64,000 nucleotides of DNA from Candidatus Krumholzibacteriia bacterium (GTDB lineage Bacteria; Krumholzibacteriota; Krumholzibacteriia; LZORAL124-64-63): assembly GCA_030592845.1 (NCBI GenBank), contig JAUVII010000001.1, positions 2,392-66,391 of the forward strand. The letters are read 5' to 3'. A program made the position numbers and the translations under genes. Position 1 is the stretch's first letter. The number at the start of each line of letters is the position of its first letter. Below are positions 9,190 through 63,900 of this stretch, piece after piece. Below the pieces are notes generated by a model, which saw nothing but the letters and a program-made list of their open reading frames with translations, made no database searches and was not told where the DNA came from.

Positions 9190-9249
9190 CCCTGATTCCG
9201 GTATCTTTCAATCCGATTGCAATTTATTCAACAGAAGCAAATTACAGCA

Positions 9250-46055: not shown

Positions 46056-48611
46056 ATGCGGAACCTGGCCGTTTATCAAGAGACTATCTTTGAACAGGTC
46101 ACCCGCCTGGCGGGCCTCTTTCTGTTGGCCCCCGTATTGCTTGTGCTGACCCTTCCAGTCCTCCTCCACATCAACCAAAAACCCGATTACGGCTTTTCGG
46201 TCCGCAGGCAGGAAGTGGTCGAAGTCGTTCCCGCGGGTCCGGCGGACATGGCGGGATTGCGCAAGGGCGACGCCATCCTGGTCATTGACGGGCGATACAT
46301 CAACAACATGCCCGACTACTTCGCCGCCCTGGCGGGCCGTTATGATCTGACCCCGCTGGCCGTCGAGATCAGCCGGGGATCGACAAAACGGGTCCTGGTC
46401 ATTTCTCCGACCCAGCCGCCCCAGGGGGTGATGATCCGCAACTATGGGGTCTGGGTATCCGGATTCGCCTTCCTGATGATCGGTTTCTGGGTTCTTTTGC
46501 GGCGCCGAGACCCCGTGGCCCGCAATTTTTTCTCCCTGTGTTTTATCTTCGCCTTTTTCCTGCTCGACATTCCCGACCACGCCAGCGTCCACTACATGAC
46601 CGCCAAGGAATTGATCCGTTATCTTTTCCAACTGTTGCTGCCCGCCTATTTCCTGCGGTTCTTTCTCCGGTTCCCCAGTCCCCGCAGCAATCTGGCACGC
46701 GAAAAAATTCAGCTCAGGATGCTGCTTGTTCCGGGTTGGGTGCTCTTCGGAATCATCGCCTGGATGTTCTATCTCAATCCGGCGCCCGGAGGACTCCTGG
46801 AAGCCACTCTCGAAATCGTTACCCTGATCTATCTGTTGGGATACTTTCTGGCCGGGCTGGTCATTTTCGCCCGCCGGGTCATGAGACGCGACCGCCCCAT
46901 CCAGCAGACAAAACTCAAGGTCGTCCTGTGGGGACTGATCTTCGGCCTGGCCCCCTTCATCGCGGGTATGCTTCTGGAAACCCTTTCCCCGGGCGCCTCG
47001 CTCCCCCAATTGCAGTATCTGGCCTTTTCCCTCCTTCTGGTTCCGATCAGTTTCGGCCTGGCCATTTTGCGGTACGGCGCTTTGGACAGGGCCTTCGTGG
47101 TCCGCGCCAGCCTTATATACGGACTGCTCACCATCCTGGTGCTCCTGATTTATTTCGTGATCGTGCTGGGCCTTGGTGAATTCCTGGCGAAGCTCTTCAA
47201 GGTCGAAACCTATTGGGTCCTTCTGCTGGTCATGGCGGGCAGCAGCCTGGCCATCCTGCCGTTGCGCCGCTGGATCCAGGGCACCATTGATACGGCATTT
47301 TATCCCGCCCGCCGCGCCAATCGCCGGACCATGACATCCCTGGCCGACAGGTTGACCGGCCTGATCGACCCCGGAGATGTCATCCAGACCCTTCTGACCA
47401 GTCTCGCCGATCTTTTCCGTCCCGAGTCCCTCGTCCTGTTTCTCTCACCGGGCGACGGCCAGGGTCATTTCAAGGCCCACCTTCCCGATGCGGATGCGGC
47501 TGATTCGATGGCCTACGACATGGATGGCGAAGACGACTCCGCCCCCACGGAAGATTATCCCCACCTGGACCAGGGCAGTGGACTGGCCATTCTGCTGAAA
47601 CGGATCCGCCGCCCGGTCTTTACCGAAGAACTGGAAGACCTCCTTTTTTCGGGAGATACGGACCACGCCTCCCTCAAGGTCCTGACCCGCATCAGGGCGG
47701 CCCTGATCATCCCGATGATTGGCGGAAATCGTCTGGTGGGATTCCTGGCCTTCGGGCCCAAGAGCAACGGAGCCCTCTACAGCCAGGAGGACCTGGCCAA
47801 CCTGCGGGCCCTGGGAATCCAGGCCGCCTCCCTTATCGAAAGCCGCCTGCTCTACCGGGAAAGCCTGAGCCGCAAACGCCTGGAAACCGAACTCGAAGTG
47901 GCGCGGGATATCCAGGGCCGACTGCTTCCCACCGGTCCGCTGGATACCGATTATTTCAGCATCTGTGGACGCAACGAACCCTGCCTCATGGTGGGGGGCG
48001 ACTATTTCGACTACTTCCCCCTCGAGGACGGCAGCCTGGGCTTCGCCATTGCCGACGTGTCCGGCAAGGGAATTCCCGCGGCCCTGATGATGACCTCTCT
48101 GGTGGTGGCCTTCCGCAGGGAGGCCAAGGCGGGCATGGGCCCAAGGGCAGTCATGGACCGCCTCAATCCCGTGGTTGCCTCGCTGGTGTCGGCGGGAAGC
48201 TTCATCTGCCTGTTTTTCGGGATCTGGAACCCGGCGACCGGGGTGATCCACTACTGCAATGCCGGCATGGATCCCCCGGTCCTGTTCCGGCCCCGCGCCT
48301 TCTATCGTCAAAAGCTGAGAAGGGGCGGTCCCGTCCTGGGCGTGGAGCCCAAACGTCACTATCGGGAGGGGGCGCTGGCCCTGGAACCGGGCGACCGCCT
48401 GTTCATGTTCACCGACGGTTTGACCGAGGAACAAAATCCCCTGGGAGATTTCTTCGATACGGACCGTTTGCTGCAACTGGTGGCCGATAACCTGGAATCT
48501 TCCCCTTTGCGCTTGATTGATAAGATTTTTTCCGCCGTCAATGCTTTTGGCGGCGAAGAGAAAACAGATGACAAGACCGCAATTATATTGGAAATAAAGA
48601 ACTTACAATAA
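46056..48611 (+). CDS. membrane-bound PP2C/SpoIIE-family serine phosphatase with N-terminal PDZ domain, multi-TM sensor region and GAF domain (RsbU-like)
   Basis: PDZ GPADMAGLRKGDAILVIDG. About 8 TM helices. GAF-like segment. C-terminal PP2C catalytic region with several conserved acidic residues. Confidence 0.8.
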   Translation: MRNLAVYQETIFEQVTRLAGLFLLAPVLLVLTLPVLLHINQKPDYGFSVRRQEVVEVVPAGPADMAGLRKGDAILVIDGRYINNMPDYFAALAGRYDLTPLAVEISRGSTKRVLVISPTQPPQGVMIRNYGVWVSGFAFLMIGFWVLLRRRDPVARNFFSLCFIFAFFLLDIPDHASVHYMTAKELIRYLFQLLLPAYFLRFFLRFPSPRSNLAREKIQLRMLLVPGWVLFGIIAWMFYLNPAPGGLLEATLEIVTLIYLLGYFLAGLVIFARRVMRRDRPIQQTKLKVVLWGLIFGLAPFIAGMLLETLSPGASLPQLQYLAFSLLLVPISFGLAILRYGALDRAFVVRASLIYGLLTILVLLIYFVIVLGLGEFLAKLFKVETYWVLLLVMAGSSLAILPLRRWIQGTIDTAFYPARRANRRTMTSLADRLTGLIDPGDVIQTLLTSLADLFRPESLVLFLSPGDGQGHFKAHLPDADAADSMAYDMDGEDDSAPTEDYPHLDQGSGLAILLKRIRRPVFTEELEDLLFSGDTDHASLKVLTRIRAALIIPMIGGNRLVGFLAFGPKSNGALYSQEDLANLRALGIQAASLIESRLLYRESLSRKRLETELEVARDIQGRLLPTGPLDTDYFSICGRNEPCLMVGGDYFDYFPLEDGSLGFAIADVSGKGIPAALMMTSLVVAFRREAKAGMGPRAVMDRLNPVVASLVSAGSFICLFFGIWNPATGVIHYCNAGMDPPVLFRPRAFYRQKLRRGGPVLGVEPKRHYREGALALEPGDRLFMFTDGLTEEQNPLGDFFDTDRLLQLVADNLESSPLRLIDKIFSAVNAFGGEEKTDDKTAIILEIKNLQ

Positions 48612-50257: not shown

Positions 50258-52108
50258 ATGAAACCAGTATACCGACGTAGTGCCATTATCACCCTGGGCC
50301 TGTTTGTCGCCCTCATTTGTGCCGTACCTCGGCTGGCCTCCGCGGAGGTGGAGATCAAGGTCGTACCCAAAAGCGAGATCGCTGAAATTGGCCAGGACCT
50401 TGTTTTGGATATCGAAGTCATTCCCGCCGCGGGAACGGCCCTTTCGGCCGAGGGACTTGTGATCGAGGTTTCCCAGGCGGGCGGTTCCAGTTTTTTCGGG
50501 ACCCCCTACCCCCTCAAGCCCCTTTCCGCCGTTGATTCATCAACAAACGCCTATCAGGGATCCGCCAGGTTTGAATGGGCGGCTCCGGTGGGGGCCGACA
50601 TCGATCCCCTTACGGCCGAACTGGTGGTCACGGTGACTGCCACTACGGCCTCCGGAAATGCCGTAACGGGGCGTTGGTCCGGTTCCCTGGATGTGGATTT
50701 CGGCAGCGAGTGGTCCGCCGACAAGATCAGTGATTTCATCGCGCGCAAAGGCATCGGGTTTTTCCTGGTGCTGGTTTTCGGGTTCGGCCTGCTGATGAGC
50801 CTCTCACCCTGCATCTACCCCATGATCCCCATCACGCTGGCGGTCATCGGAGCCCAGAGCCAGGAGAAAGGGGCTGCCCACGGCCTGATCATGTCGGTTA
50901 CCTATGTGGTGGGCATGGCTTTTGTCTACGCGATCATGGGCGCCCTGAGCGCCACCGTATTCAGCGGGATTACCGCCTTCATGCAAAGCCCCGTGGTGCT
51001 GGTTCCCATCGCCGTACTCCTGTTTGCCCTTTCCTTCAGCATGTTCGGCGCCTTTGAGCTGCAGGCCCCGGCCTTTCTCCGGGACCGTTTCCAGGGTCCC
51101 GGCGCGGGCGGGCGCGGCGGACTGATCGGTGTTTTCGCCATGGGCATGGTTGCCGGCCTGGTAGCCTCCCCCTGTGTAGGCCCCTTCCTGGCCGCCCTTT
51201 TGGTCTGGGTCGCCACCACCGGTGACTGGGTCCTCGGATTCCTTTCCCTATTCACCTTTGGCATGGGTATGGGAATGCTACTGATCGGCGTGGGCACCTT
51301 CCCCGCCCTGCTGGGAACCATGCCCCAGAGCGGCGGCTGGATGGACACCGTCAAAAAGGGGATGGGACTATTGCTGGTGGCCATGGCCTTCTATTTTGTC
51401 CGCCCCGGCAGCGTCATTCCGGCCCATATCTTCTATCCGCTGGTTGGTGTCACCACCATCCTGACCGCGGTATTCATGGGAGCCTTCGATTCCCTGGCCC
51501 CGGAAGCGGGTTGGTGGCCCCGCACCCTCAAGGGTCTCGGGCTGGTCGTCTTCGTGGCCGGATTGTTTTTTCTGGCGGGCTCATTCCTGCAGCACGGATT
51601 CCTGATGCCCTCCCCCCTGGCGGAAATCTCCGTTCGTCCCGGCATGGAAATGATGCGCTCCACCGAAACCGTCAGCAGCAGCACCACCGCCAATGGCGGC
51701 CCCACGGTAACCGTGGCGGTACCCTTGCCCGACAAGGTTCAGTGGACCAAGATCCACACTGGTGAAAACGTGAAGTCCTTTCTGGAGGAAAAACGCGCCG
51801 AGGCCAAGGCGGCCGGTCGCCCCGTGATGATCGATTTCTGGGCCCAGTGGTGCGTCTATTGTAAAAAGCTCGACAAGTCGGTATGGAACGTCCCGGAGGT
51901 GGTGGCGGAAGCTCAGCGTTTCATCACCATCAAGGTCGACGCCACGGCTCCGGACGATGAGGAAATGACCAGGATCAAAGAGGAGTTCAAGGTGCCCGGC
52001 CTGCCCCGGGTCATCTTCATCGACAGCCGGGGCGAAGTTCTCCACGGCCGGTCGGCGGGTTTCAAACCTGCCGACGAGATGCTGGTTATCATGAAAAGCA
52101 TCCGCTAG
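50258..52108 (+). CDS. dsbD: thiol:disulfide interchange protein DsbD-like (N-terminal periplasmic domain, CcdA-type TM core, C-terminal thioredoxin domain)
   Basis: Signal peptide. TM cysteines LSPCIYPMIP and ASPCVGPFL. C-terminal WAQWCVYCK. Confidence 0.85.
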   Translation: MKPVYRRSAIITLGLFVALICAVPRLASAEVEIKVVPKSEIAEIGQDLVLDIEVIPAAGTALSAEGLVIEVSQAGGSSFFGTPYPLKPLSAVDSSTNAYQGSARFEWAAPVGADIDPLTAELVVTVTATTASGNAVTGRWSGSLDVDFGSEWSADKISDFIARKGIGFFLVLVFGFGLLMSLSPCIYPMIPITLAVIGAQSQEKGAAHGLIMSVTYVVGMAFVYAIMGALSATVFSGITAFMQSPVVLVPIAVLLFALSFSMFGAFELQAPAFLRDRFQGPGAGGRGGLIGVFAMGMVAGLVASPCVGPFLAALLVWVATTGDWVLGFLSLFTFGMGMGMLLIGVGTFPALLGTMPQSGGWMDTVKKGMGLLLVAMAFYFVRPGSVIPAHIFYPLVGVTTILTAVFMGAFDSLAPEAGWWPRTLKGLGLVVFVAGLFFLAGSFLQHGFLMPSPLAEISVRPGMEMMRSTETVSSSTTANGGPTVTVAVPLPDKVQWTKIHTGENVKSFLEEKRAEAKAAGRPVMIDFWAQWCVYCKKLDKSVWNVPEVVAEAQRFITIKVDATAPDDEEMTRIKEEFKVPGLPRVIFIDSRGEVLHGRSAGFKPADEMLVIMKSIR

Positions 52109-52130
52109 GCATCAGGTGGTTTTTCATACG

Positions 52131-52165
52131 GAAAGAGGCCCGGGGTGATTCCCCGGGCCTCTTTC
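52131..52165. terminator. bidirectional terminator between convergent dsbD and the FG-GAP gene
   Basis: GAAAGAGGCCCGGGG-tgatt-CCCCGGGCCTCTTTC, perfect 15-bp stem. Confidence 0.8.
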
Positions 52166-52180
52166 AAATGGTGTCATTTT

Positions 52181-53020
52181 CTACTGGAAACGAACTTCGG
52201 AACGATAGTCGGCATCGAACACCTTCAAGGGCCCGTTGCCCGGATTTTCGGTCAGGATCTCCGGCATCCCGTCGCCGTCGATGTCCAGCAATTCGATCTT
52301 CCCGAAAAACGGCTCGTCTTCCCATTCGACATCTCCGGACACCGAGTCGACCACCTGGCCCGTGTTCAGGACGATCTCCACCCGGCCGTCGCCGTCCACA
52401 TCCCCACACCGAACCTGGGTGGCGGAATATTCCTGGATGCTGGTGAAATTCTTGGTGAAGGTGGCACCGTCGACGTAGACGATTTTATTGTCGGCCACCA
52501 TGACGATTTCATTGGCCTGATCATCATCCATGTTGGCGGTGGTGAAGCAGGAAACCGTATTGTATTCGCTCGGCAGGCTTTCCCACAGCAAGGCATAACC
52601 ATCCATGGCCCAGACATATACCTTCCCGTTGCTGGTCCTGCAGAGTATGGAGTCCTCCAGGCCGTCGCCGTCGAGATCCGCGGTTATGACTTCGTCCGGA
52701 ATACCGCTGAGCTGGATGCTCTTCCAGACCCTGCTGACACCCTGGCCATCCATCTTGGCCACCTGTACGGTACCGAACCTCTCGCCGATGGCGAAAAACA
52801 TCCCGGCTTCACCATGAATGGGTTCGAACTTGGCGACATGGTTTATCCGGTCCGCCGCCCAGGACAGGGTGCGGTACTGCGTGTAGGACAGTTCCCCCTC
52901 GGCACGAACCGCCTGGGGCCCGGACCATAAAAAAGCGACAACTCCGAGTAAGGCCGTCACAAACACCGCACGGGCGGAGGGAACCCGGCAAGCCGGTATC
53001 GCGCCACGAAAGATCAGCAT
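52181..53020 (-). CDS. secreted FG-GAP/VCBS repeat protein
   Basis: Signal peptide. Repeats ADLDGDGLEDSIL, GDVDGDGRVEIVL, LDIDGDGMPEIL. Confidence 0.75.
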   Translation of the reverse strand: MLIFRGAIPACRVPSARAVFVTALLGVVAFLWSGPQAVRAEGELSYTQYRTLSWAADRINHVAKFEPIHGEAGMFFAIGERFGTVQVAKMDGQGVSRVWKSIQLSGIPDEVITADLDGDGLEDSILCRTSNGKVYVWAMDGYALLWESLPSEYNTVSCFTTANMDDDQANEIVMVADNKIVYVDGATFTKNFTSIQEYSATQVRCGDVDGDGRVEIVLNTGQVVDSVSGDVEWEDEPFFGKIELLDIDGDGMPEILTENPGNGPLKVFDADYRSEVRFQ

Positions 53021-53170
53021 GAAACACCTCAGTGTGGAAGGCCGTGCGGGGTCCGGCGGACCCTGGGCGACACGGCGGGTTCATCAGGGGGTGACCCTAT
53101 CAATATAGCCCATACGGAGCGTCAGGTCATGTATTTCGGTATCAACAATCCGCCGTGGGTTCAATTCGGA

Positions 53171-53788
53171 TTACGGCCAGACGATTCCGGCACCCACCAG
53201 CACCGACCAAGTACGGTAGGTGCGGCCTGCATTGATCATCCAGCGGTACTGCCCCTTCAGGAAAAACATATGGGTGGGTTTGAAAAACCATTCCTGACCC
53301 GCCTCGGCCAGAATGGACCAGTGATCCCCACCGGCAATGTCATGGGCATCGGGACGCTTGATTTCGCTGATGCCCGAACCGATCCCGAGGAAGATATTAA
53401 CCTCGGTTTTTCGGTCACCGCGATTATTGAAGTAGCGTCTCAGGATGAGATCGAGCGAAGTGATGTCACCGCCATCGGGGACTTTCAGGAAATCGACCTG
53501 GACGACCATTCCCGTGGTCCAATTCCACAGCCCGTCGAAGATATTGATAGGTGAACCGGGGCGGAAGATAATGGCGCCCCCGTATCCCCAGTCCCCGGAT
53601 TGCTTCAGGAACCCGCCCCCGTATGCCCCATGTCCCGTCAGGAAAACAGGATTCTCAAAGGGCTCATTCAGGTGGGAGTTGGGAAGTTCCAGACGCGAAT
53701 TACCCTCCGTCAACTGGGCCGTTGCAGGGGTGGACAGGACCAAGGCAAAGGCCCAGGCAAGCCCCAACGGGACGAACCAGGAATCCAT
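53171..53788 (-). CDS. outer-membrane beta-barrel protein (OmpW/OmpA-barrel-like)
   Basis: Signal peptide MDSWFVPLGLAWAFALVLSTPATAQ. Alternating amphipathic strands. Aromatic-rich C-terminus. Confidence 0.55.
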   Translation of the reverse strand: MDSWFVPLGLAWAFALVLSTPATAQLTEGNSRLELPNSHLNEPFENPVFLTGHGAYGGGFLKQSGDWGYGGAIIFRPGSPINIFDGLWNWTTGMVVQVDFLKVPDGGDITSLDLILRRYFNNRGDRKTEVNIFLGIGSGISEIKRPDAHDIAGGDHWSILAEAGQEWFFKPTHMFFLKGQYRWMINAGRTYRTWSVLVGAGIVWP

Positions 53789-54055
53789 TCGCCGACCGGA
53801 TATTTTTGAGAATTGCCTGAATAATTTCAGCAAATTTCAACTCCGTTTTCCATGGGTACCCGGTATTCGGGTCCCGATCCCGCCAACCATGCAAGGCGGG
53901 TGCCAGTTGAAATTCTTTATTGACCAGGCAAATTACTGCCATTAAATAATATAGAAACTGCGACAACCGGCCCTGACAGACCGGGATACGAATTTTCCCG
54001 AAACGGCCGATTCCATGGCTGAAAACCGTACACCTGCCACCGGAGCGGACCAGAA

Positions 54056-54706
54056 GTGAAAAACTCCCCACCCATCCCCCCTGCCGATGATCCCCCCGAC
54101 AGCTATCGGACCCTGGCGGAACCCGCGGCCACAGAAATGAAAATCCAACGGTCCCGCTTCCTGGCCCAGGCCGTGCCCATCACTTGCGTGGAGGACGCCC
54201 AATCCTACCTGGAGAAGACGGCCCGGCGTTACCATGACGCCCGGCATGTCTGTTATGGTTACCGGCTGGGGGTGGGACGGAACATGGTCTCCCGCAAAAG
54301 CGATGACGGGGAACCTTCCGGCACCGCGGGCGAACCCATTCTTTCGGCCATTGACCAACTGGATCTGACCGATGTCCTGGTGATGGTGGTCCGGTATTTT
54401 GGAGGGATCAAACTGGGCACCGGAGGTTTGGGCCGGGCCTACGGCCAGGCTGCGGCAAACGCCCTCGGCCGGGCCACGGTTCGCGAAGTCCCCCTGGGCC
54501 GGGAATTTATCATAGACTTTTCCTACGCGCAGGAAAAGACCATGCGCCGTCTTCTGGAAATCTGGAAAGGTAAACCCATCGACCAGGATTATGGTGAAAA
54601 TGTCACCTGGCGTATTTGGCTGGCCCACTCGCGGTGGCGTGGGTATTCCGCGGCCCTGACCGAACACACCGCCGGGACGGTAGTCCTGAAAAAGGCGGAA
54701 AAATAG
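54056..54706 (+). CDS. yigZ: IMPACT/YigZ family protein (UPF0029)
   Basis: SDDGEPSGTAGEPIL and VVRYFGGIKLGTGGL motifs. Confidence 0.8.
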   Translation: MKNSPPIPPADDPPDSYRTLAEPAATEMKIQRSRFLAQAVPITCVEDAQSYLEKTARRYHDARHVCYGYRLGVGRNMVSRKSDDGEPSGTAGEPILSAIDQLDLTDVLVMVVRYFGGIKLGTGGLGRAYGQAAANALGRATVREVPLGREFIIDFSYAQEKTMRRLLEIWKGKPIDQDYGENVTWRIWLAHSRWRGYSAALTEHTAGTVVLKKAEK

Positions 54707-54717
54707 TCTCCATGCCA

Positions 54718-54752
54718 ATAAAAAAAAGGGCCCCGGTGCCACCGGAGCCCTT
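54718..54752 (-). terminator. rho-independent terminator of the sigma-factor gene
   Basis: Minus-strand reading: AAGGGCTCCGGTGGCACCGGGGCCC hairpin followed by TTTTTTTT. Confidence 0.7.
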
Positions 54753-54815
54753 ACTCGTTCGCCCGTTGATTTATTCAGGCCGGTGACGGGTTACCGGCTC
54801 AACTGACATCTCTCG

Positions 54816-55805
54816 CTAGACAGTGGCTTCCTCGGCATAATCCTGCATGTACCGGAAAGCCTTGCTCTGACGGATCTTTTCGAAGGCTTCTTCCTTGATC
54901 TGCCGGATCCGCTCGCGGGTCAGGCCCATGATCTGCCCGATTTCCTCGAGCGTCATTTCCTGATCACTGCCCAGGCCGTAGTACAACTTGAGCACCTTGG
55001 CTTCGCGCTCTTTCAGATCACCCAACATGCGGCCGATGCTCGAGTTAAGGTCATCGTCCAGGACCTTGTTGTCCGGACCGACGCTGGTCGTATCCTCGAG
55101 GAAATCCAGGTAGGTGCTGTCCTCGTCGTTGCCGACGAAGTCATCGAGGAAGAAATTGTCCTGCATCAGGGGCAGGGTATCTTTCACCTCGTCCACGGAC
55201 AGGCCCAAAACCTTGGCGATTTCTTCGGGCTCGGGCTTGCGGCGCAGTTTCTGCTGCAGTTCGCCACTGGCCTTCTTGATCTGGTTCAGTACACGGGCGC
55301 GGTTCAGGGGCATGCGCACGATCTTGCTGTGGTTGGCCAACGCGGCCAGAATGGACTGACGAATCCACCACACGGCGTAGGAGATGAACTTGAAGCCACG
55401 GGTTTCGTCAAACCGCTGAGCGGCCTTCAACAGGCCCAGGTTGCCCTCGTTGATCAAATCTTCCAGGGGCACTCCGTAGTGGGCGTATTCCTTGGCGATG
55501 GAGACCACAAACCGCAAATTGGCCTTGACCAACTTGTGCAGACTTACGCTGTCATTGGAATGGATACCGCGAGCCAGTTCACACTCTTCAGCCCTGGTCA
55601 GAAGCGAGTAGGCCTTCACTTCCTGAAAGTAGAGGTCCAGGGTGCTCATCAACTGGGCTGCGGGAGCCACCTGATCCGTTTTGACTTTCGCCGAGCCGCG
55701 GGCTCCGGCTTTGGCACGGGTCACTTTGGTCTTGGCGGCTTTTCTGGTCCGGGCGACCGGCTTCTTTTTGGTTTTGGTTTTGGTTTTGGATACTACCTTG
55801 GCCAT
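54816..55805 (-). CDS. RNA polymerase sigma-70 family factor (group 1/2-like) with lysine-rich basic N-terminal extension
   Basis: Regions 2-4 recognisable (LRFVVSIAKEY, ISYAVWWIRQSI, LEEIGQIMGLTRERIRQIKEEA). N-terminus KTKTKTKKKPVARTRKAAKTKVTRAKAG. Confidence 0.85.
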   Translation of the reverse strand: MAKVVSKTKTKTKKKPVARTRKAAKTKVTRAKAGARGSAKVKTDQVAPAAQLMSTLDLYFQEVKAYSLLTRAEECELARGIHSNDSVSLHKLVKANLRFVVSIAKEYAHYGVPLEDLINEGNLGLLKAAQRFDETRGFKFISYAVWWIRQSILAALANHSKIVRMPLNRARVLNQIKKASGELQQKLRRKPEPEEIAKVLGLSVDEVKDTLPLMQDNFFLDDFVGNDEDSTYLDFLEDTTSVGPDNKVLDDDLNSSIGRMLGDLKEREAKVLKLYYGLGSDQEMTLEEIGQIMGLTRERIRQIKEEAFEKIRQSKAFRYMQDYAEEATV

Positions 55806-56151
55806 TTCAACATCCTCTCCGGGTAATCCTGCATTTTATTCCGGACGGGTTATCCCCCGGGTCATGCTTTGTTGTCGGTTGGGGGCAAACTCGTAATCCC
55901 CCATTAACAATATCTGTACCATAAATTCGAAAAATCTTAACTTCTCGACAGATCTATAGATGACAGTGCTGCAACATTTTACCTGACCGCCTGATCTGTT
56001 TTTTTGCTAACGGGGTCTCGTTTTCACCTCTTTTGTGACATTTTGTCAAGAGGTTCCCTGCCGGGGACGCCACTTTGTCAAATTCTTTTTGGAAATAATT
56101 GAAATCACTTCGACGGAAATAGTCGTGTGGGCATAAACCCCTTCATGGGAT

Positions 56152-58431
56152 ATGATGATGATTGGTCAGGCCACTCATCAAACCGCACCACCTTCACAGG
56201 AGCGATCCATGCCGACAAACCCGGACGCCCCCCGACCGGGCCCGACGGCCGCCAGGCGGATGTCATCAGCCTGGTGGGGCACATCTGTCCTGTTGGTCGT
56301 CCTGGCCACGGGATTTCTCTTTTCCTGGCACAGCCTCAGTGATCTCGATATCTGGTTCCACCTCCGTGCCGGCCGTGACCTGCTGGCCGGGCATGGGGTG
56401 ACATCCACCAACCTGTATTCCTTTACCGAACCTGACCGCCCGTGGGTCAATCACGAGTGGATGTTTCAAGCCCTGACCGCTCTGACCGGCCCGGCTGTGG
56501 CTATTTCACCGGCAACCGATGGCGTTCCGGACGTGCTGGGCTGGAATCTGATGAGATCCTTTCTGACCTTCCTGTTGTTATTGACCCTTTTGGGGGGTGA
56601 TGGCGGTTGGGACCGCTTCCGAGGAAGGGATGGTCCGGCGGCAGCAGCCTGGTCGGGAGTGCCTGTTCTGATGGGCTTACTGCTGATTTGGCCACGATTG
56701 ACAATTCGTCCGGAGTTGTTTTCATACCTGTTTTTCGTGGTCCTGATCCGGGGTGTGGAGCATTTTCTCCGGGGGCCCGGGTCCCTGGCCTCCACCGAAG
56801 GGAAATCACCGGCCAACCCCACTGACCGCTGGGTCCCCTATTTGGATCCCCGCCAACCGGGAGGCCTCATCGTTCTCCTGACGGTCATCTGGGCCCAATT
56901 CCACGGATTCGCCTCCCTGGCCCCGCTGGTCCTGCTACTGGGCTGGATGCTGACCCCTTTCCAGGTCCGCCTGACGCCCCCTGAGACAACCGGTGGAAGG
57001 CTCCAGCGCCGTCGTGGAATCATCCTGGTCGGGCTGACCCTGATTGCCCTGACCCTGACGCCCAACGGCTGGAACGGCCTTCTGATGCCAGTCCGGGCCC
57101 TGGGTCAGTTCTCCCAGAACCAGGTGGATCTGCGCGCCACCGTTTCCGAACTTGTTCCCCTGCAGGATTCCCCCAATTCCCTGGCCCTGACCATCGCCGT
57201 CTACCGTGTCGGCATGGTCTGGGGATTGATATGGATAGTCGGCACCTTTGGTAAAGTCAGCCTGTTGCGGATCTTCATCTTTGCACTGGCCGCAGTGGCT
57301 GCCTGGAGTAACCAGCGCAGCATCGGGTTTTTCGGATTGGCGTTCATACTGCTTCATACGGGGGCCGGAAGCCATCCCTGGCGGTTCGCCACACCAGGGC
57401 GACTGACCACCATCCGCCCCACCGCCATGGCCGCAGCCGGGCTGGCCATCACCTTGCTGGCGGCCGGCTTCCTATGGCCCCGGATCGTCAGTGATGAATT
57501 CTATTTGAAGGAAGGGGTTGGACGGCGATTCGGGTCGGGAGTGACCCCCGCCCACTTCCAGATCCAGGCCGCCGCCGACCTTGCATCCCAGCAGGACCCA
57601 AAGGTATTCGCCAACCTCGACGCCGCCGCGTTTCTCCTGGCCAACACCTCCGCCCGTCCTTTTATCGATGGGCGAACCGAGGCCTATTCCGCCGAACTCT
57701 GGTCCGAATACCATGTCATCAAGAGGGGTGACGGCCGGTCATTGCAGCATCTGGCCCAACGCGGAGTGGCTTCGGTCTGTTTGGCCACGGGCTCCGGCGC
57801 GTTCGACCTTTTGGCCGAACAATTGCTGGCTTCCCCCGCCTGGAAGCTTTGGACCGCGGAAGGGGCGGGACTATTATTCCGACCCGGAGATGATGTCCCC
57901 GGATCCGCGATCCTGGAACAGGCGGCCCGCAATACCATGGGATCCGCCGGAGGGCAATCCTCCGCCAGAAACGCCGACTTCTGTCTGGCCGCGGGCCGTC
58001 TCTACAAGTTCGCCGGTAATGACGCGCTGGTGGAAGATTCCTATCGCCGGGGGCTGGATTTCCGAAGCAACCACCCCACCCTGAATCACAATCTGGGAAA
58101 TCTGTTGTTGAACCGGAACAATTTCCGGGAAGCCCTGCCCCATTTCCAGGCAGCTTTGGCGGTTAATTCCCGCCTAATCGGATCCGCTCTGAACGCCGGT
58201 GTCTGCCAGATGCGGCTGGGACGCCCCGCCGAGGCCGCGCAATCATTCCGCCGCGCGGTCGCCATGGATTCGGGCAGGTTCGAGGGATGGGTTAATCTTT
58301 CAGCGGCCTATCACGGATCCGGAAACCGGCAGGGGGCGATTTCCGCTTTGAAAAAAGCGTTGGAAATCAGACCGGGAGATCCCCGACTGCAGCAGCGATT
58401 GCGGGAACTGAACCGCGGAGCCCGGAACTGA
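56152..58431 (+). CDS. polytopic membrane protein with C-terminal TPR domain (TMTC / PMT-like putative glycosyltransferase architecture)
   Basis: About 12 predicted TM helices in the first about 480 aa (LSDLDIWFHLRAGRDLL loop motif). C-terminal TPR repeats. Confidence 0.6.
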   Translation: MMMIGQATHQTAPPSQERSMPTNPDAPRPGPTAARRMSSAWWGTSVLLVVLATGFLFSWHSLSDLDIWFHLRAGRDLLAGHGVTSTNLYSFTEPDRPWVNHEWMFQALTALTGPAVAISPATDGVPDVLGWNLMRSFLTFLLLLTLLGGDGGWDRFRGRDGPAAAAWSGVPVLMGLLLIWPRLTIRPELFSYLFFVVLIRGVEHFLRGPGSLASTEGKSPANPTDRWVPYLDPRQPGGLIVLLTVIWAQFHGFASLAPLVLLLGWMLTPFQVRLTPPETTGGRLQRRRGIILVGLTLIALTLTPNGWNGLLMPVRALGQFSQNQVDLRATVSELVPLQDSPNSLALTIAVYRVGMVWGLIWIVGTFGKVSLLRIFIFALAAVAAWSNQRSIGFFGLAFILLHTGAGSHPWRFATPGRLTTIRPTAMAAAGLAITLLAAGFLWPRIVSDEFYLKEGVGRRFGSGVTPAHFQIQAAADLASQQDPKVFANLDAAAFLLANTSARPFIDGRTEAYSAELWSEYHVIKRGDGRSLQHLAQRGVASVCLATGSGAFDLLAEQLLASPAWKLWTAEGAGLLFRPGDDVPGSAILEQAARNTMGSAGGQSSARNADFCLAAGRLYKFAGNDALVEDSYRRGLDFRSNHPTLNHNLGNLLLNRNNFREALPHFQAALAVNSRLIGSALNAGVCQMRLGRPAEAAQSFRRAVAMDSGRFEGWVNLSAAYHGSGNRQGAISALKKALEIRPGDPRLQQRLRELNRGARN

Positions 58432-58450
58432 CCCGGACCCCGCAATATTC

Positions 58451-59872
58451 CTAGTATTTGACCTGCACGGTATAGGTCAGAACCGCTTCCCCGTCCGCGG
58501 GCACCGGCACATCAAACGCCAATTCCCCGGCATTCACTTTCCGATGGGGATGGGATTCGGAGACCACTTCCCAGTATCCGCCCACCGGCTCGCTTACTTC
58601 CACGACCACCTCGTTTTCCCTGTGGTTCCTGATGGTGATCTCGAAAGTGGTGCGATAAAGACTGGCACCCAGTTTTTCACTGTTGGTACGGACTCTTTCA
58701 GCCACGATGTCGAAAGCGTTGCCCACCGTCAGGTCGATGGTTTCCTTTTTCGGTGTATGGTCGATGCGGTCTTCCCCCAGCAGTTGCCGCGAGCCGGACG
58801 CCGAGCGGCCATAAACCCGGAACACACCGGCGGGCAGGGCCATGCCAAGCTTGTTTTCCTCGGTGTTCTCGAAACTGTAGCTGACGCTGACCTTGGTTTT
58901 CTCCGTCAAGCGCCCGATGCTCCGGAAATAATGGGGCTGGGCCCGCAACCGGTAGTGCTTCGTCACCCTGATCCCGGCCGCGTCGAAGAGGGATATCTGT
59001 TTGATCTGGTTGTCCAGCAGGTCGGTCGGCCGCTGCATGGTGTACATGTGATAGTCGTAGAGCGCCTCTTCCTGGAAATTGGACCGGGGAGCCCGCATGG
59101 CGGTGGTTTCCATCATCCCCATCTTTTCCATGCTCGGCCGGGCCTGGTTGATATCCCCGGCCACCAGCAGAAGATTGGCCTCCCGGTATGAGGCCCCCGT
59201 CCTGTTTTCCACCGTAACCCAGGCCTGCAGACCGGCCTTCTCCCCTTTTTCATCCAATTGCAGAACGTAATCCGCGTGCCAGGAAAATCCGCCCGTCAGA
59301 TAGGAAGTCTCGACTTCGGTGCTTCCACCCTTGGACGTATGTGCCAACCAGACCAGAGTGGGACGCGCCCGCAGATTTTCCGGCAGCTCCGGCAGGGCCA
59401 GGCGTCCCGGCATCTTGAAGACGATTTCCTCATCCACGCTGTACACCGGACCATTGCTCATTCCCAGAAGTGTCCCGGTGAGGCGGGTGCCGTCCTCCTG
59501 GATCCAGGTCAATTCACGACCCACGTACTTCTGCAGGATCTTGTCGGGCGACATCAGATCGAATTCGTAGTTCTGTTCATACAGTTCCAGGCCCGTCCCA
59601 CCGGAGGACGAAACCAGCAGGGTCACCGGATTGATGCGGGACGGAACATCCTGAAATTCGAAGGTGAAGTCTCCCCGGGGAAGGTCCACCCGCCGGATTT
59701 CGCGAATCAGGGCCAGATCCCGGTTGTAGACCGTTACGTCAATGCGTTCCCGGTCGTCCTGTCCCGAAGCTACTGCTGACAATTCCGCCGCCGAAGCCGG
59801 ACCGGCCATCCCCATCAGGAGTGCACAGGTTGGAATCAGATATCCCAATAATTTCAATGGTTTGGCCATCAT
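58451..59872 (-). CDS. DUF4139-family exported protein
   Basis: Start at MMAKPLKLLGYLIPTCALLMGMAGPASA (signal peptide). About 470 aa. Overall pattern of the DUF4139 family. Confidence 0.5.
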   Translation of the reverse strand: MMAKPLKLLGYLIPTCALLMGMAGPASAAELSAVASGQDDRERIDVTVYNRDLALIREIRRVDLPRGDFTFEFQDVPSRINPVTLLVSSSGGTGLELYEQNYEFDLMSPDKILQKYVGRELTWIQEDGTRLTGTLLGMSNGPVYSVDEEIVFKMPGRLALPELPENLRARPTLVWLAHTSKGGSTEVETSYLTGGFSWHADYVLQLDEKGEKAGLQAWVTVENRTGASYREANLLLVAGDINQARPSMEKMGMMETTAMRAPRSNFQEEALYDYHMYTMQRPTDLLDNQIKQISLFDAAGIRVTKHYRLRAQPHYFRSIGRLTEKTKVSVSYSFENTEENKLGMALPAGVFRVYGRSASGSRQLLGEDRIDHTPKKETIDLTVGNAFDIVAERVRTNSEKLGASLYRTTFEITIRNHRENEVVVEVSEPVGGYWEVVSESHPHRKVNAGELAFDVPVPADGEAVLTYTVQVKY

Positions 59873-60081
59873 GGCATAGACCTCCGGTTGGAGACGGAAA
59901 ATAGTTCTGACACAATGATCATTTTCCCGGAAAACGATCGTAGCGACCATTCAATCTAAAGTCATAGACGGTTCGGACGATCATTCTGTTGACCCGAGGG
60001 TTTCGGGTAAACAAGAAAATTCCACCAGGGTGCCGGAATATTTGTCCCGGTCCCGAACCAAAATGTCACTGTTGGAGGTGC

Positions 60082-60462
60082 ATGTTGGGCCACACCATCC
60101 TCATCGCGGACGACGCTGCATTCATGCGGGACATGCTCCGCCAGATCATCGAGGACATGGATTGGACCGTCGTTGGAGAAGCCACCGACGGGCGGGAGGC
60201 CATCACCCTTTACCAAAAGAACAAGCCCGACCTGGTTCTACTGGACATCACCATGCCCAACCTGGACGGCACCCAGGCCCTGAAAGCCATCCTCGCGGAT
60301 GACCCTCACGCCCAGATCGTCATGATCACCGCCCTCGGACAAAAGGATCAGGTCCTCGACGCCATCAAGGCCGGGGCCCGGGATTTCATCATCAAACCCT
60401 TCGATCATGACCGGGTGACGGAAACCCTGGACCGGATCCTGGTTCCCAGCCCCGTCGTCTGA
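60082..60462 (+). CDS. single-domain response regulator (CheY-like receiver)
   Basis: ILIADD, LVLLDITMPNLDG, ALKAI, MITALGQ, IIKPF motifs. GGAGG RBS. Confidence 0.85.
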   Translation: MLGHTILIADDAAFMRDMLRQIIEDMDWTVVGEATDGREAITLYQKNKPDLVLLDITMPNLDGTQALKAILADDPHAQIVMITALGQKDQVLDAIKAGARDFIIKPFDHDRVTETLDRILVPSPVV

Positions 60463-60479
60463 ACCGTCGCCAGCGGCGG

Positions 60480-61265
60480 TCAGGACAGAAACACCAGGAC
60501 CGCAACCCCCAGAACCAGGCAATAGATACTGAATTTCCAGAAGTGGGACTGCACCACGGCCAGGGCCGTCCATTTGATCGCCACCAGGCCCACGGCAAAC
60601 GAAGTTGCTCCCGCCAGAACAAGCCGTAACAATTCCGCCGATTCCACCGAATTCCCGTCCATCAATTGCAGGGCCAGGGCGCCACTCACGGCCGGGATGG
60701 AAAGCAGGAAGCTGAACCGCGCCGCCTCTGCCCGCGGCAGGCCCACCCACAGGGCCGCGGCAATGGTGGAGCCTGACCGGCTGATTCCCGGCAGGATCGC
60801 GAAGACCTGCGCGGTACCGACCATCAGGGCGCGGCCAAGAGAGGGCGCCCGGGGTTCCCAGGGTTCCTTCAGGGGATTGCTCTTGCCGGCAAAACGGGTG
60901 GAGAACAGTATCCCCGCGGTGAGAACCAGGCCGGCGGCGGCAAACAGGGGACTGTGAAAAAGCGCCTCGATCTGATTCCTGAACAAAAGTCCCACCACCA
61001 CGGCGGGCAGGGTGCCCACGAACAGACTGGTCAGGTACCCCACCGCCGCCCGATCGAATTTCAACAGGCGCGCAATTTCACTCCGGTAGACAACCAGAAT
61101 GGATCCCAGGGTTCCGACATGAAGAATGATGTCAAAAAACACATCACCCTGGCGGACACCCATGAAATGCTGGAACAGGACCAGGTGACCGGAACTGCTG
61201 ACGGGAAGGAATTCGGTCAGCCCCTGGACGACAGCCAGCAGAAGCATGTTCAGGATTTCAACCAC
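60480..61265 (-). CDS. uppP: undecaprenyl-diphosphate phosphatase
   Basis: LTEFLPVSSSGHLVL, GISRSGSTIAAAL motifs. Confidence 0.9.
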   Translation of the reverse strand: MVEILNMLLLAVVQGLTEFLPVSSSGHLVLFQHFMGVRQGDVFFDIILHVGTLGSILVVYRSEIARLLKFDRAAVGYLTSLFVGTLPAVVVGLLFRNQIEALFHSPLFAAAGLVLTAGILFSTRFAGKSNPLKEPWEPRAPSLGRALMVGTAQVFAILPGISRSGSTIAAALWVGLPRAEAARFSFLLSIPAVSGALALQLMDGNSVESAELLRLVLAGATSFAVGLVAIKWTALAVVQSHFWKFSIYCLVLGVAVLVFLS

Positions 61266-61346
61266 CGCGAAAAACCTCGCTGTCAGGAAGCCCGCACCGG
61301 GGCTTCAGGATGAAATTGCGAATTGGGTATTTGGCCCACCAGGCTG

Positions 61347-62222
61347 TTAGGAATGACCACCGGGGTTGCGGGCTGCCCGAGCCTGACCGTAATGGAGCCG
61401 AGCCTCCTGGGGCATACCCAGGGCGTCGCAGGTCAAGGCGATCTGGTAGTGCGTGCGCGCGTCCTCGGGAAAATATTCCAACGCGTTTTCGAGACTGACA
61501 CGAGCCTCCTGGTAACGCTCCATCTTGTGAAGGCATGTGCCCCGGTAATAGGGAATGCGCGCCAGGCGGGAATCCAGTTTCCAAGCCAGGTCGAACCGCA
61601 GGCAGGCATCCGGGTAGATACCGCTCTTCATCAGGCAAAGCGCCGCGTAGTAATGCCCCAACGCAAATCCCGGGTCACATTCCACGCTGCGCTCGAAACA
61701 ATCCAGGGCCCGCACGAAATCTTCCCGGGCATAGTGGACCAGTCCCAGATTCTGATAGCCTTCGGCGTCCTGCTCCAGGGCGAGCGCGGATTCGAAAGCC
61801 CTGATGGCCTCGTCGCTGCGCCCCTCCTCGGCGTAGATGGCTCCCAGGTTATGGAAAGCTACCGGGCTGCCGCCTGACTGGTGGGTGGATTTCCGGTAGG
61901 CCCGCACGGCCTCGTCCCGCCGCCCCTGGCGATCCAGGCAAACCCCGAGGTTGGTCAGATAGGAGGGGGTAACCGGTTCAAGTTCCAACGCCTTCCTGAA
62001 ACAATGTTCCGCCCGTTCGGGAAGACCGAGTTTCATGAATACACAGCCCAGGCGGTAGTGCCAGGGGTGCTGGTCGGGCGACGCCGCAAGAGCCCGCTCG
62101 TAGGCCTGTCTGGCCTTCTCGAGCTCGCCTTCGGTTTCGGCCTTGCGTCCGGATTGAAAAAGTCCGGCGCTCGATGGGGAAGCATCGTTGTTCGATGAGG
62201 ATTCCGGTGCTGATTGATTCAT
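61347..62222 (-). CDS. tetratricopeptide-repeat protein
   Basis: About 7 TPR-like repeats. Immediately downstream of the MglA-like gene (60-bp gap). Confidence 0.7.
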   Translation of the reverse strand: MNQSAPESSSNNDASPSSAGLFQSGRKAETEGELEKARQAYERALAASPDQHPWHYRLGCVFMKLGLPERAEHCFRKALELEPVTPSYLTNLGVCLDRQGRRDEAVRAYRKSTHQSGGSPVAFHNLGAIYAEEGRSDEAIRAFESALALEQDAEGYQNLGLVHYAREDFVRALDCFERSVECDPGFALGHYYAALCLMKSGIYPDACLRFDLAWKLDSRLARIPYYRGTCLHKMERYQEARVSLENALEYFPEDARTHYQIALTCDALGMPQEARLHYGQARAARNPGGHS

Positions 62223-62282
62223 GCGGGGAATCTACCCCAGAACACACCCGGGGTCAACGTCGGCGTGGGATTCCGGGCCGGA

Positions 62283-63119
62283 TCAGAAGGTGGAATTATC
62301 GTCGACTTCGATTTCCAGCAGAATCTTGATGGGACCGTCTCCCGTCAGCAACCGCCTGGGAATCTTGACCGGGACGACCACCGGAGGCCGCAATTCCTCG
62401 AAAATGGCATCGGTGAGTGCCTTGGTCGATTCGCCGATTTCCGAACCGGGAATGGGCGGACCATAGTCTATGCCCAAACCGCTGGCATCAATCTTTTCCA
62501 CTTCGACGGAAATTTCACCCTCTCCCAGGATGGGTGGTTCGAAACTGGTCTCCAGCTTGCGGGTCCTGGGGTTCTCGTTGAGTTGGCCGACCGTAAGACC
62601 CAAAACCGATTTAAGGGTTTCCCGAACGCCCTCTCCCTTGCCTGCATTGGCGGGAAAAGAAAGGAGTCCCCAGGGGTTGAGCAGGCTTTCCATCCGGTCC
62701 ACCGGCAGAATATCGGCCTGGTCACGGCCATTGTATTGGATGACCACCGGAACGTCGGTCAGGTCCAGTTCGTAGGATTCCAGAAAATTCTTCAGGGATT
62801 CGAACGCCGCCAGACTCTCGTCAAGTTGATCCAGTCGGGAGTTGACCACGAAAACGATTCCATCGAAGGGAGCCTCGGCGGCCGGTCCGGGGGAACGATG
62901 GCTTTCCTCGCCGGCGTCCATGCACTGCACCAGGACCTGCCAGGTACCGTAGTTGCCTTGATTGACCTTGAAGGCGATCTGCCGTTCAGGATCCCCCGAG
63001 CCCGGAACCAGGACCTGCTCCGGCGGAAGGGACTGATGGATAAAACGCAGATTGGCCCTTTTTCCCGAATCGGAGGGACCGTAGTAAAGCAGTCGGCAGG
63101 TTTTCTGCGATGTCATCAT
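62283..63119 (-). CDS. MglA-like Ras-family small GTPase paralogue with divergent nucleotide-binding motifs and about 85-aa C-terminal extension
   Basis: CRLLYYGPSDSGKRANLRFI compared with remembered MglA CKIVYYGPGLCGKTTNLQYI. DGIVFVVNSRLDQLDESL...VPVVIQYNGRDQAD compared with DGVVFVADSQIERMEANM...IPYVIQYNKRDLPN. Start at MMTSQ assumed. Confidence 0.7.
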   Translation of the reverse strand: MMTSQKTCRLLYYGPSDSGKRANLRFIHQSLPPEQVLVPGSGDPERQIAFKVNQGNYGTWQVLVQCMDAGEESHRSPGPAAEAPFDGIVFVVNSRLDQLDESLAAFESLKNFLESYELDLTDVPVVIQYNGRDQADILPVDRMESLLNPWGLLSFPANAGKGEGVRETLKSVLGLTVGQLNENPRTRKLETSFEPPILGEGEISVEVEKIDASGLGIDYGPPIPGSEIGESTKALTDAIFEELRPPVVVPVKIPRRLLTGDGPIKILLEIEVDDNSTF

Positions 63120-63380
63120 TTCTTCGGCCAAGGCATTATCCTTTGCATGTTTGGACCACGGGCCGGATCTTTCCGGAGAGAGTCCGTATCCGGAAGAAGC
63201 AAGGCCTGTGCCATCAATGCTTCTCTCAAAACCCTGATTCCACCTTAATTCCGAGGTTTCCATAAAGTAGGCAAGCAAATTGCATTACCGACGCGGACGG
63301 AGGGATGAATCACGCACGGTGGGCCATTTTGAGTTCCATCGGGGCATTTGAAGGAAAGATCCGCAACAGAAAGTGGCCAG

Positions 63381-63821
63381 ATGACCACCAACACCGACAA
63401 AATCCTGAAGACCATGTTCGGCCGTCTGCTTCAAATCGAGGTGGAGGAAGACATCATCCACAAACTTTGTGCCGTCATCGACAGCGTGACCGACAGGGTC
63501 GGGGGAAATTTCGATCTGGATACCGTCCAGGGCCAGAACACCTTTCGCGCCCTCTTGTGTTCCATGGTGGTTCACGGTTGGGGTAACGGGATGCATCCCT
63601 ATCACAATCCCGGCGCCAACCAAGACGGTCACGCCGTTGAAGTCCGGGTGAGCAAGGATATCCTGATGTCCATGGAAGACCTTCAATCACTCCGTTACGT
63701 CAAAAAAGACGATCAGGGCCGGGTGAAACAAGCCTTGTTCGAACCTGACCATAATGTTCGCGTGCGGCAACAGATTGACGAGATCCTGGGTGAAATCAGC
63801 CGTAACAAGGGCAAAAGCTAG
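63381..63821 (+). CDS. hypothetical protein
   Basis: MTTNTDKILKTMFGRLLQIEVEEDIIHKL.... Strong GC third-position bias in this frame. The overlapping minus-strand ORF lacks it. Confidence 0.5.
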   Translation: MTTNTDKILKTMFGRLLQIEVEEDIIHKLCAVIDSVTDRVGGNFDLDTVQGQNTFRALLCSMVVHGWGNGMHPYHNPGANQDGHAVEVRVSKDILMSMEDLQSLRYVKKDDQGRVKQALFEPDHNVRVRQQIDEILGEISRNKGKS

Positions 63822-63860: not shown

Positions 63861-63900
63861 AAAAAGCGCGGCTCCGTTGATTACGGAGCCCCGCTTTTGT
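63861..63900. terminator. bidirectional terminator
   Basis: AAAAAAGCGCGGCTCCG-ttgatta-CGGAGCCCCGCTTTTGT. Confidence 0.6.

Follow-up and report, generated by a model that had tools for sequence, protein, structure and literature searches.

A stretch of 64,000 nt from a Candidatus Krumholzibacteriia bacterium (contig JAUVII010000001.1, positions 2,392 to 66,391 of the forward strand) was analyzed; this stretch is called the window, and all coordinates refer to it. Two neighboring genes on its minus strand encode a protein derived from the Ras-like GTPase MglA, hereafter the G protein, and a tetratricopeptide repeat (TPR) protein (Table 1). Counted from the first ATG at 63119, the open reading frame (ORF) of the G protein spans 62283..63119 on the minus strand, ends with a stop codon at 62283-62285 and encodes 278 aa; residues are numbered from this ATG throughout. 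A database copy with 100% identity (P0001) comprises 282 aa and begins at a TTG codon at 63131, four codons upstream of the ATG, with AAGGA located 7 nt before it; position 63131 is therefore the likelier start. Its G domain (residues ~5-182) is connected by a variable linker (183-214) to a C-terminal region that is conserved (215-272). The TPR ORF follows 60 nt downstream in frame with the G-protein ORF, and the spacer has a median length of 62 nt (range 11-168) at 55 loci of this family. Both genes are probably co-transcribed.

An earlier note on this DNA, made by reading the sequence, had described the G protein as an MglA homolog with altered G motifs, and the homology was borne out by sequence and by predicted fold. 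A phmmer search against all PDB sequences returned MglA of Thermus (3t12, E = 1.6e-17, within residues ~6-182) and MglA of M. xanthus (6h17, 5ymx and 6hjh, E of about 4e-17) as the only significant matches, followed by FeoB with an E-value of 0.22. Scans of the G protein against Pfam and NCBIfam yielded nothing above noise. The HMMER alignment to MglA contains no gaps in the relevant motif stretches, and both proteins have the signatures GKxxN, QYN and DG[IV]VFV in common. An AlphaFold2 (AF2) model was built from a 136-sequence alignment and reached a mean predicted local distance difference test score (pLDDT) of 79, with values mostly >90 in the G domain and <50 in the linker at 188-218. When this model was compared with the PDB using Foldseek, the top 14 matches were all MglA, with template modeling (TM) scores of 0.69-0.78 normalized to the target; the best one was 6izw_A (MglA-GTPgammaS with MglB; E = 5.9e-16, TM 0.78 normalized to the target), and small GTPases other than MglA began only at E = 1e-9. 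MglA structures with a GTP analogue scored slightly above most GDP-bound ones, a trend that is weak and not uniform. Because of these best matches and of an intrinsic Arg retained in switch I, the G protein is assigned as a descendant of group 1 MglA.

Homologs of the G protein numbered at least 396 at E ≤1e-3 in a large protein database. The best 120 of these 396 are 54-100% identical to it and nearly all unnamed; a few homologs bear the JGI names 'MglA' or 'SRP receptor subunit beta', and those from NCBI originate from metagenome-assembled genomes (MAGs) of Krumholzibacteria. An exhaustive HMMER search of 1.84 billion cluster representatives gave only 11 clusters at E ≤1e-30, followed by a steep fall in score to ordinary MglA-like proteins at ~1e-24. 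One genome per GTDB species was also scanned; this resulted in 56 family loci, all from Krumholzibacteriota-type MAGs, some of which are labeled otherwise. The ratio of nonsynonymous to synonymous substitution rates (dN/dS) had a pairwise median of 0.12 in 30 closely related pairs, and the G protein thus is under strong purifying selection. A 344-aa ORF runs antisense to the G-protein gene (window 62214-63248, plus strand); since purifying selection acts on the minus-strand frame, it can most likely be regarded as a mere shadow of the GC-rich coding strand.

In GTPases of the Ras superfamily, phosphate and Mg2+ are coordinated by G1-G3. The protein contributes two ligands to the catalytic Mg2+, namely the Ser/Thr of the P-loop and the Thr of switch I; the Gln of switch II places the water for its attack, and NKxD reads the guanine base (PMC4316618). 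In M. xanthus MglA, any one of the substitutions T26N, T54A, Q82A/R and K142A is enough to abolish function, and several of them destabilize the protein (PMC3000849). We determined the state of these motifs in 126 family sequences and, in a separate count, at the 56 species-level loci. The P-loop reads GPSDSGKRAN in the G protein and GPGLSGKTTN in MglA, aligned in the same register that the earlier note had used. Both Gly and the Lys are invariant in the family, and the residue after the Lys is Arg in 124 of the 126 sequences; at species level it is Arg at 52 loci, Thr at three and undetermined at one, with Thr or Ser confined to a sister clade. In switch I, ERQ stands in place of (D/E)RT, the arginine finger and Thr of MglA. 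The Arg is kept in 122/126 sequences, and Gln replaces the Thr in 116/126, a change absent from the earlier note. P-loop Thr to Arg and switch-I Thr to Gln are the changes that define the family.

In the switch-II region, MDAGE aligns without gaps to TVPGQ of MglA and lies at the same 14-residue spacing from DG[IV]VFV. The loss of the catalytic Gln described in the earlier note is therefore real, but its emphasis on the replacing Glu was misplaced: Glu occurs in 4 of the 126 sequences, and the position is otherwise mostly filled by R (55), Q (25), K (23), L (7), A (5) or S (3). The catalytic-Gln position is unconstrained, and Glu is a private state. The surrounding D-x-G-x-E is well kept (Asp in 125, Gly in 122 and the second Glu in 119 of 126 sequences). 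The alignment also confirmed that G4 reads NGRD, as compared to NKRD in MglA. Here, Asn is retained in 125/126 sequences and the last residue is D in 93 and E in 26, while Lys never occurs at its position; among the species-level loci, Lys is found in 0/56 and the acidic residue is lost in 14/56 (NRRG, NRVG, NRRP and others). Ala-x-Ala of G5 is conserved in the family. The G protein departs from four of the five motif criteria for group 1 MglA (Wuichet and Sogaard-Andersen 2014) and agrees with the group by homology. Given these departures and the absence of a coupled MglB gene among the ORFs scanned, it is not classed as a functional MglA. By sequence and predicted fold it combines a G domain, loss of catalytic residues and conservation of the altered state, the features by which a pseudoGTPase is recognized. 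With both protein ligands of Mg2+ and the catalytic Gln gone, the GTPase-dead state proposed in the earlier note would be the natural reading.

Table 1. Features of the G protein-TPR locus and of neighboring genes in the window; motif coordinates were checked by translation.
Feature	Coordinates	Strand	Basis or remark
MglA-derived G-domain protein with degenerate G motifs	62283..63131	-	ORF, PDB sequence and fold match, homologs, dN/dS
G1/P-loop GPSDSGKRAN	63051..63080	-	Arg replaces Mg2+-binding Ser/Thr; Gly and Lys kept
Switch I DPERQIAF	62970..62993	-	MglA-type Arg kept; adjacent Mg2+/gamma-phosphate Thr changed to Gln
G3/switch II region MDAGEE in place of TVPGQ	62904..62921	-	HMMER alignment, family counts, translation
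G4 NGRD in place of NKxD	62721..62732	-	Family and species counts, translation
Mid-extension motif LGIDYGPPIPGSEIG, after variable linker	62433..62477	-	Alignment; entropy 1.81 bits
Conserved C-terminal motif PPVVVPVKIPRRLLTGDGPIKILLEIEV, then acidic tail DDNSTF	62304..62387	-	Alignment
Spacer between G protein and TPR protein, 60 nt, without terminator-like hairpin	62223..62282	-	Hairpin check
Cytoplasmic TPR protein, 291 aa, ~8 consensus-like TPRs	61347..62222	-	Pfam TPR_1/TPR_2
146-aa orphan protein, divergently transcribed	63381..63821	+	Homolog search, Pfam/PDB, AF2
UppP/BacA	60480-61265		
DUF4139 protein, apparent N-terminal signal peptide	58451-59950	-	
759-aa protein, hydrophobic apparently multi-pass N-terminal part and C-terminal TPRs	56152-58431	+	By eye

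The G domain is followed by a C-terminal extension, as had been noted before; its length is about 95 aa (residues 183-278) rather than the ~85 aa given then. The C-terminal motif of ~28 residues occurs in all subgroups of the family, including the members that retain GKT or GKS. Its column entropy is 1.26 bits as compared to 1.17 bits for the G domain and 2.86 bits for the linker; hence, conservation of the motif equals that of the G domain, and the linker is free. AF2 modeled the motif region (about residues 250-270) with a pLDDT of 82-84.

A few relatives have retained the older P-loop. GKT or GKS is found at three species-level loci (L055-L057), in the representative P0127 and in P0129, which is borne on a fragment and also keeps NKRD. 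These members already have neither the Thr of switch I nor the catalytic Gln, and the C-terminal motif as well as the downstream TPR gene are present; L055-L057 have, in addition, an upstream gene for a 146-aa orphan protein. A neighbor-joining tree of the G domain, calculated without bootstrap and rooted with the canonical MglA-like sequence L060, showed the family as one clade in which the GKS/GKT members are sister to a single GKR clade; losses of the G4 Asp fall mostly in one part of the latter. Because the GKS/GKT sister clade sits at the same syntenic locus, the sequences indicate that the P-loop Thr was replaced by Arg once within the family. Arg21, Gln47 and Glu72 co-occur, and the GKT/GKS members have none of the three; their joint appearance reads as a remodeling of the site, not as random decay. 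Apparent intermediates exist at the same locus, leading from GKS/NKRD through GKT/NxQD and GKR/NxRD to forms in which the G4 Asp is lost. GKR was furthermore found in two unrelated MglA-like lineages, P0142 (353 aa) and P0155 (199 aa; locus L066, 6001-6600), which lost the catalytic Gln as well; this suggests convergence. The gene for P0155 is surrounded by Ser/Thr kinase and FHA genes.

The downstream protein matched Pfam TPR_1/TPR_2 with E-values of about 1e-44; its repeats were counted by eye from the translation, in which a signal peptide was not evident. Best matches in the PDB were designed consensus TPRs and the TPR of OGT. The earlier note had pointed to this gene as a neighbor, and it proved to be an invariant one: a TPR gene lies directly downstream at every locus that is long enough, and P0129, the basal member, is likewise followed by one. 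Extended peptides are bound by TPR domains, and MglA is known to work through proteins of this kind; the TPR protein is therefore the obvious candidate partner of the G protein. At locus L055 (10001 onward), the G-protein ORF runs into the TPR ORF via a stretch rich in Arg, Cys and Trp, giving a protein of 639 aa (P0128). We considered P0128 as a Rosetta-stone fusion of G protein and TPR protein and rejected it, as its middle part resembles an out-of-frame linker when compared with P0127; the fusion is probably an assembly frameshift.

Among known systems, group 1 MglA of M. xanthus and T. thermophilus (6izw, 6h17, 3t12) is closest by sequence and fold. The G protein shares with it the Arg beside G2, the intrinsic arginine finger that defines this group, of which SofG has also been named a member (PMC4316618). 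It is unlike group 1 MglA in that the family has GKR for GK[ST], RQ for RT, (V/M)D(A/S)Gx(E) for TVPGQ and N(G/R/N/S)R(D/E/G) for NKxD; furthermore, it carries the extension, its gene apparently shares an operon with a TPR gene, and an MglB gene was not found nearby here. The analogy to Bdellovibrio bacteriovorus MglA and its TPR partner Bd2492, which the earlier note had drawn, proved loose. Bdellovibrio MglA resembles the G protein in having no MglB GTPase-activating protein (GAP), and it is believed not to pass through the normal cycle (Milner et al. 2014, PMC3983030). It works through Bd2492 by experiment, whereas the TPR pairing described here is read from the genes; moreover, it keeps its GTP-binding residues with Gly21 to Ser as the only change, which the G protein does not, and bd2492 forms an operon with tamAB apart from mglA, whereas the TPR gene here adjoins the G-protein gene (PMC3983030). 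A TPR protein also acts as effector of an MglA-type G protein in the MglA-SgmX system of type IV pili in M. xanthus (PMC7519303, PMC7668184). The partner of SgmX is a normally cycling MglA, and the TPR protein described here is small (291 aa) and consensus-like. Group 2/3 MglA proteins such as Streptomyces CvnD9 resemble the G protein in a G4 without the NKxD Lys (PMC4316618). Unlike the G protein, they keep GK[ST], the G2 Thr, GTPGQ and coupled MglB homologs, and GTPase activity of CvnD9 has been measured.

Two more comparisons can be made. SofG, an MglA paralog of M. xanthus that is extended at both its N- and its C-terminus and acts independently of MglB, keeps the canonical G motifs and requires GTPase activity for its function. 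SofG and the G protein both belong to the MglA family and carry terminal extensions; SofG is not known to be paired with a TPR gene. Eukaryotic pseudoGTPases come from unrelated lineages, and we know of none with Arg at the position of the P-loop Ser/Thr. Rnd, RhoH, CENP-M and the pG domains of p190RhoGAP, all of them eukaryotic, are like the G protein in that the G-domain fold is present and motifs for catalysis, nucleotide binding or both are replaced, and they function as constitutive binding modules (Stiegler and Boggon 2020; PMC5593906).

The reading that we favor, with a probability of about 60%, is that the G protein is a non-hydrolyzing and non-cycling MglA derivative that works together with the TPR protein. 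It is preferred because all four positions are changed, the new Arg and Gln are fixed and the old catalytic position drifts. Since GxxxxGK is invariant, the sequences suggest that the phosphate site is still used. The G protein would be locked in one conformation. This could be achieved in two ways: either a nucleotide or phosphate is bound without metal and Arg21, in the place of Mg2+, provides the charge, or the pocket is empty of ligand and is filled by Arg21 in a pair with Glu72, which arose together with it, or with Asp68, which is conserved. In such a state, the G protein would be stably complexed with the TPR protein and act constitutively as an adaptor; candidate binding elements are the switch-I surface, the LLNPWGLLSFPA stretch and the C-terminal motif with its acidic tail. 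Control would be exerted by expression or by partners instead of a cycle driven by a GAP and a guanine nucleotide exchange factor (GEF).

Several observations weigh against this reading. GxxxxGK, the G4 Asn and Ala-x-Ala of G5 are kept, which points to a phosphate or nucleotide ligand that is still bound; 'dead' may therefore mean 'permanently loaded' and not 'empty'. The group 2 MglA CvnD9 hydrolyzes GTP although it has no NKxD Lys (PMC4316618); therefore, loss of this Lys alone is no proof of lost function. An interaction of G protein and TPR protein is proposed from gene order. A mirror-tree comparison over 24 loci, which is crude, revealed no specific co-evolution of the two proteins (partial r 0.004); in the same comparison, the G protein and the upstream 146-aa orphan had correlated rates (partial r 0.55).

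The last observation would fit an unlikely alternative in which the G protein continues to function as a GTPase switch, though by unconventional chemistry: an Arg of the P-loop, of switch I or both would stabilize the transition state, the switch-I Gln would replace the switch-II Gln, and the part of GAP or GEF would be taken by the TPR protein or the orphan. G1 and G2, however, retain no side chain for the coordination of Mg2+, and we know of no Ras-superfamily GTPase that hydrolyzes GTP without a Mg2+-coordinating side chain from G1 or G2. Loss of the guanine-specificity Asp in 14/56 species likewise fits poorly with a GTP cycle that is conserved, and the basal GKT/GKS members had already lost the switch-I Thr and the catalytic Gln. 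In favor of a working switch are the conserved GxxxxGK, G4 Asn and G5 Ala residues, the strong constraint on Arg46 (122/126) and Gln47 (116/126), and the precedents that catalytic residues move in other GTPase families and that group 2 MglA does not need the NKxD Lys for its activity (PMC4316618). An improbable explanation as well is a ligand sensor, whose pocket would bind another anion free of metal, such as ATP/ADP, (p)ppGpp, a cyclic dinucleotide or a phospholipid head group. The P-loop Gly and Lys residues are indeed invariant while the residues for base specificity decay, an extra Arg in the phosphate site would be expected to favor metal-free phosphate binding, and the independent GKR in P0142 and P0155 suggests a recurrent functional solution. 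The pocket nevertheless resembles a guanine pocket at G5 and the G4 Asn, and enzymes related to such ligands are not specifically linked to the gene pair.

A sequence artefact, by frameshift or assembly error, or a decaying pseudogene would have to be considered for a metagenomic contig, the more so as in P0128, a relative, an apparent frameshift joins the G-protein ORF to the TPR ORF. Arg in 124/126 family sequences and 52/56 species, intact ORFs, the dN/dS of 0.12 and the conserved C-terminal motif leave this explanation with a negligible probability. Mis-registered motifs or a frameshift in the reads, which the earlier note had named as possible sources of error, are excluded: the HMMER alignment agrees with the reading, and the substitutions are fixed family-wide.

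A bolder version of the non-cycling reading is put forward tentatively, as we consider it rather doubtful. According to it, the family would be the first described bacterial class of pseudoGTPases in the Ras superfamily, in which the P-loop Arg replaces Mg2+ and the pocket either holds a phosphate or nucleotide free of metal or is empty and sealed by an Arg-Glu pair. The protein would be frozen in a form like MglA-GTP and would be an obligate subunit of a TPR complex, possibly with the orphan, and GKR would have at least three separate origins among MglA-like proteins. Searches of the literature for a pseudoGTPase of the MglA type or for motility of Krumholzibacteriota retrieved nothing relevant; the one paper in the searched library that names both MglA and pseudoGTPase appears to describe methods for loading Ras with GTP. 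MglA is a model for bacterial polarity governed by a Ras-like switch, and in a whole phylum this switch has been changed to an apparently non-cycling form that is under strong selection with a fixed partner. The locus provides a natural series for the transition from GTPase to pseudoenzyme and for the effect of an Arg in the Mg2+ site. The proteins are small and look soluble, which makes binding and complex assays straightforward though the organisms are uncultured. In addition, ~400 'hypothetical proteins' receive a first annotation.

Each sufficiently long locus has the same gene order: the divergent 146-aa orphan, the G protein, the TPR protein, UppP/BacA in most loci, a single-domain CheY-like response regulator on the opposite strand, a DUF4139 protein and a 759-aa TPR protein that appears by eye to be membrane-bound. 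The gene content of DUF4139 protein, 759-aa TPR protein and UppP/BacA suggests a cell-envelope theme. Synteny extends over ~20 kb around the G protein across Krumholzibacteriota (loci L002-L058; window 50258-63821) and also includes SprA (type IX secretion translocon domain), an M28 peptidase, a zinc-ribbon protein, a primary-type sigma factor, an Impact_N protein, an FG-GAP protein and DsbD. We considered the conserved neighborhood as a dedicated system and rejected it, since the synteny spans ~20 kb in both directions and includes housekeeping genes; the wider synteny is general genome conservation in the phylum. Functional linkage can be argued only for the G protein-TPR pair and perhaps the orphan, and the role as a polarity scaffold proposed in the earlier note finds no support in this phylum-wide neighborhood.

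No gene of the neighborhood is more conserved than the orphan, with 65-97% identity across the phylum and the invariant core QGQNTFRALLCSMVVHGWGNGMHP; it is possibly linked to the G protein-TPR pair. Its 497 homologs are all 'hypothetical', a Pfam domain was not detected, and a profile search of the PDB was empty. AF2 gave a helix-rich topology at low confidence (pLDDT 61). The orphan was also considered as a hidden MglB and rejected: hhalign against the MglB-like protein of a canonical mglA locus gave a probability of 0.1%, and the topology is not roadblock-like. In agreement with the earlier note, which had reported no adjacent MglB/roadblock gene, a Robl_LC7/roadblock domain was not found among the window ORFs scanned. 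Within 10 kb of the G-protein gene at the 56 family loci, no roadblock gene was seen either. A second MglA-like gene was found neither in the window nor within 10 kb at the 56 family loci; the term paralogue used in the earlier note would presuppose a canonical mglA in another part of the genome. Two canonical mglA loci that the scan of GTDB species also picked up (L059, L060) have neighbors that look like roadblock proteins, judged by eye from the translations. At L059, from an Acidobacteriota MAG, a 174-aa protein that is TPR-like by eye (8710-9234, minus strand) is encoded immediately upstream of the canonical mglB-mglA pair (9435-10576), a possible further case of MglA-TPR gene linkage.

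Just after the orphan gene, at 63870-63890, a perfect 8-bp GC-rich hairpin with T-runs on both strands was observed, which looks like a bidirectional terminator. Elsewhere in the window and unrelated to the G protein, a PDZ-GAF-SpoIIE (PP2C phosphatase) protein, a regulator of the partner-switching type, is encoded at 46056-48611 on the plus strand.

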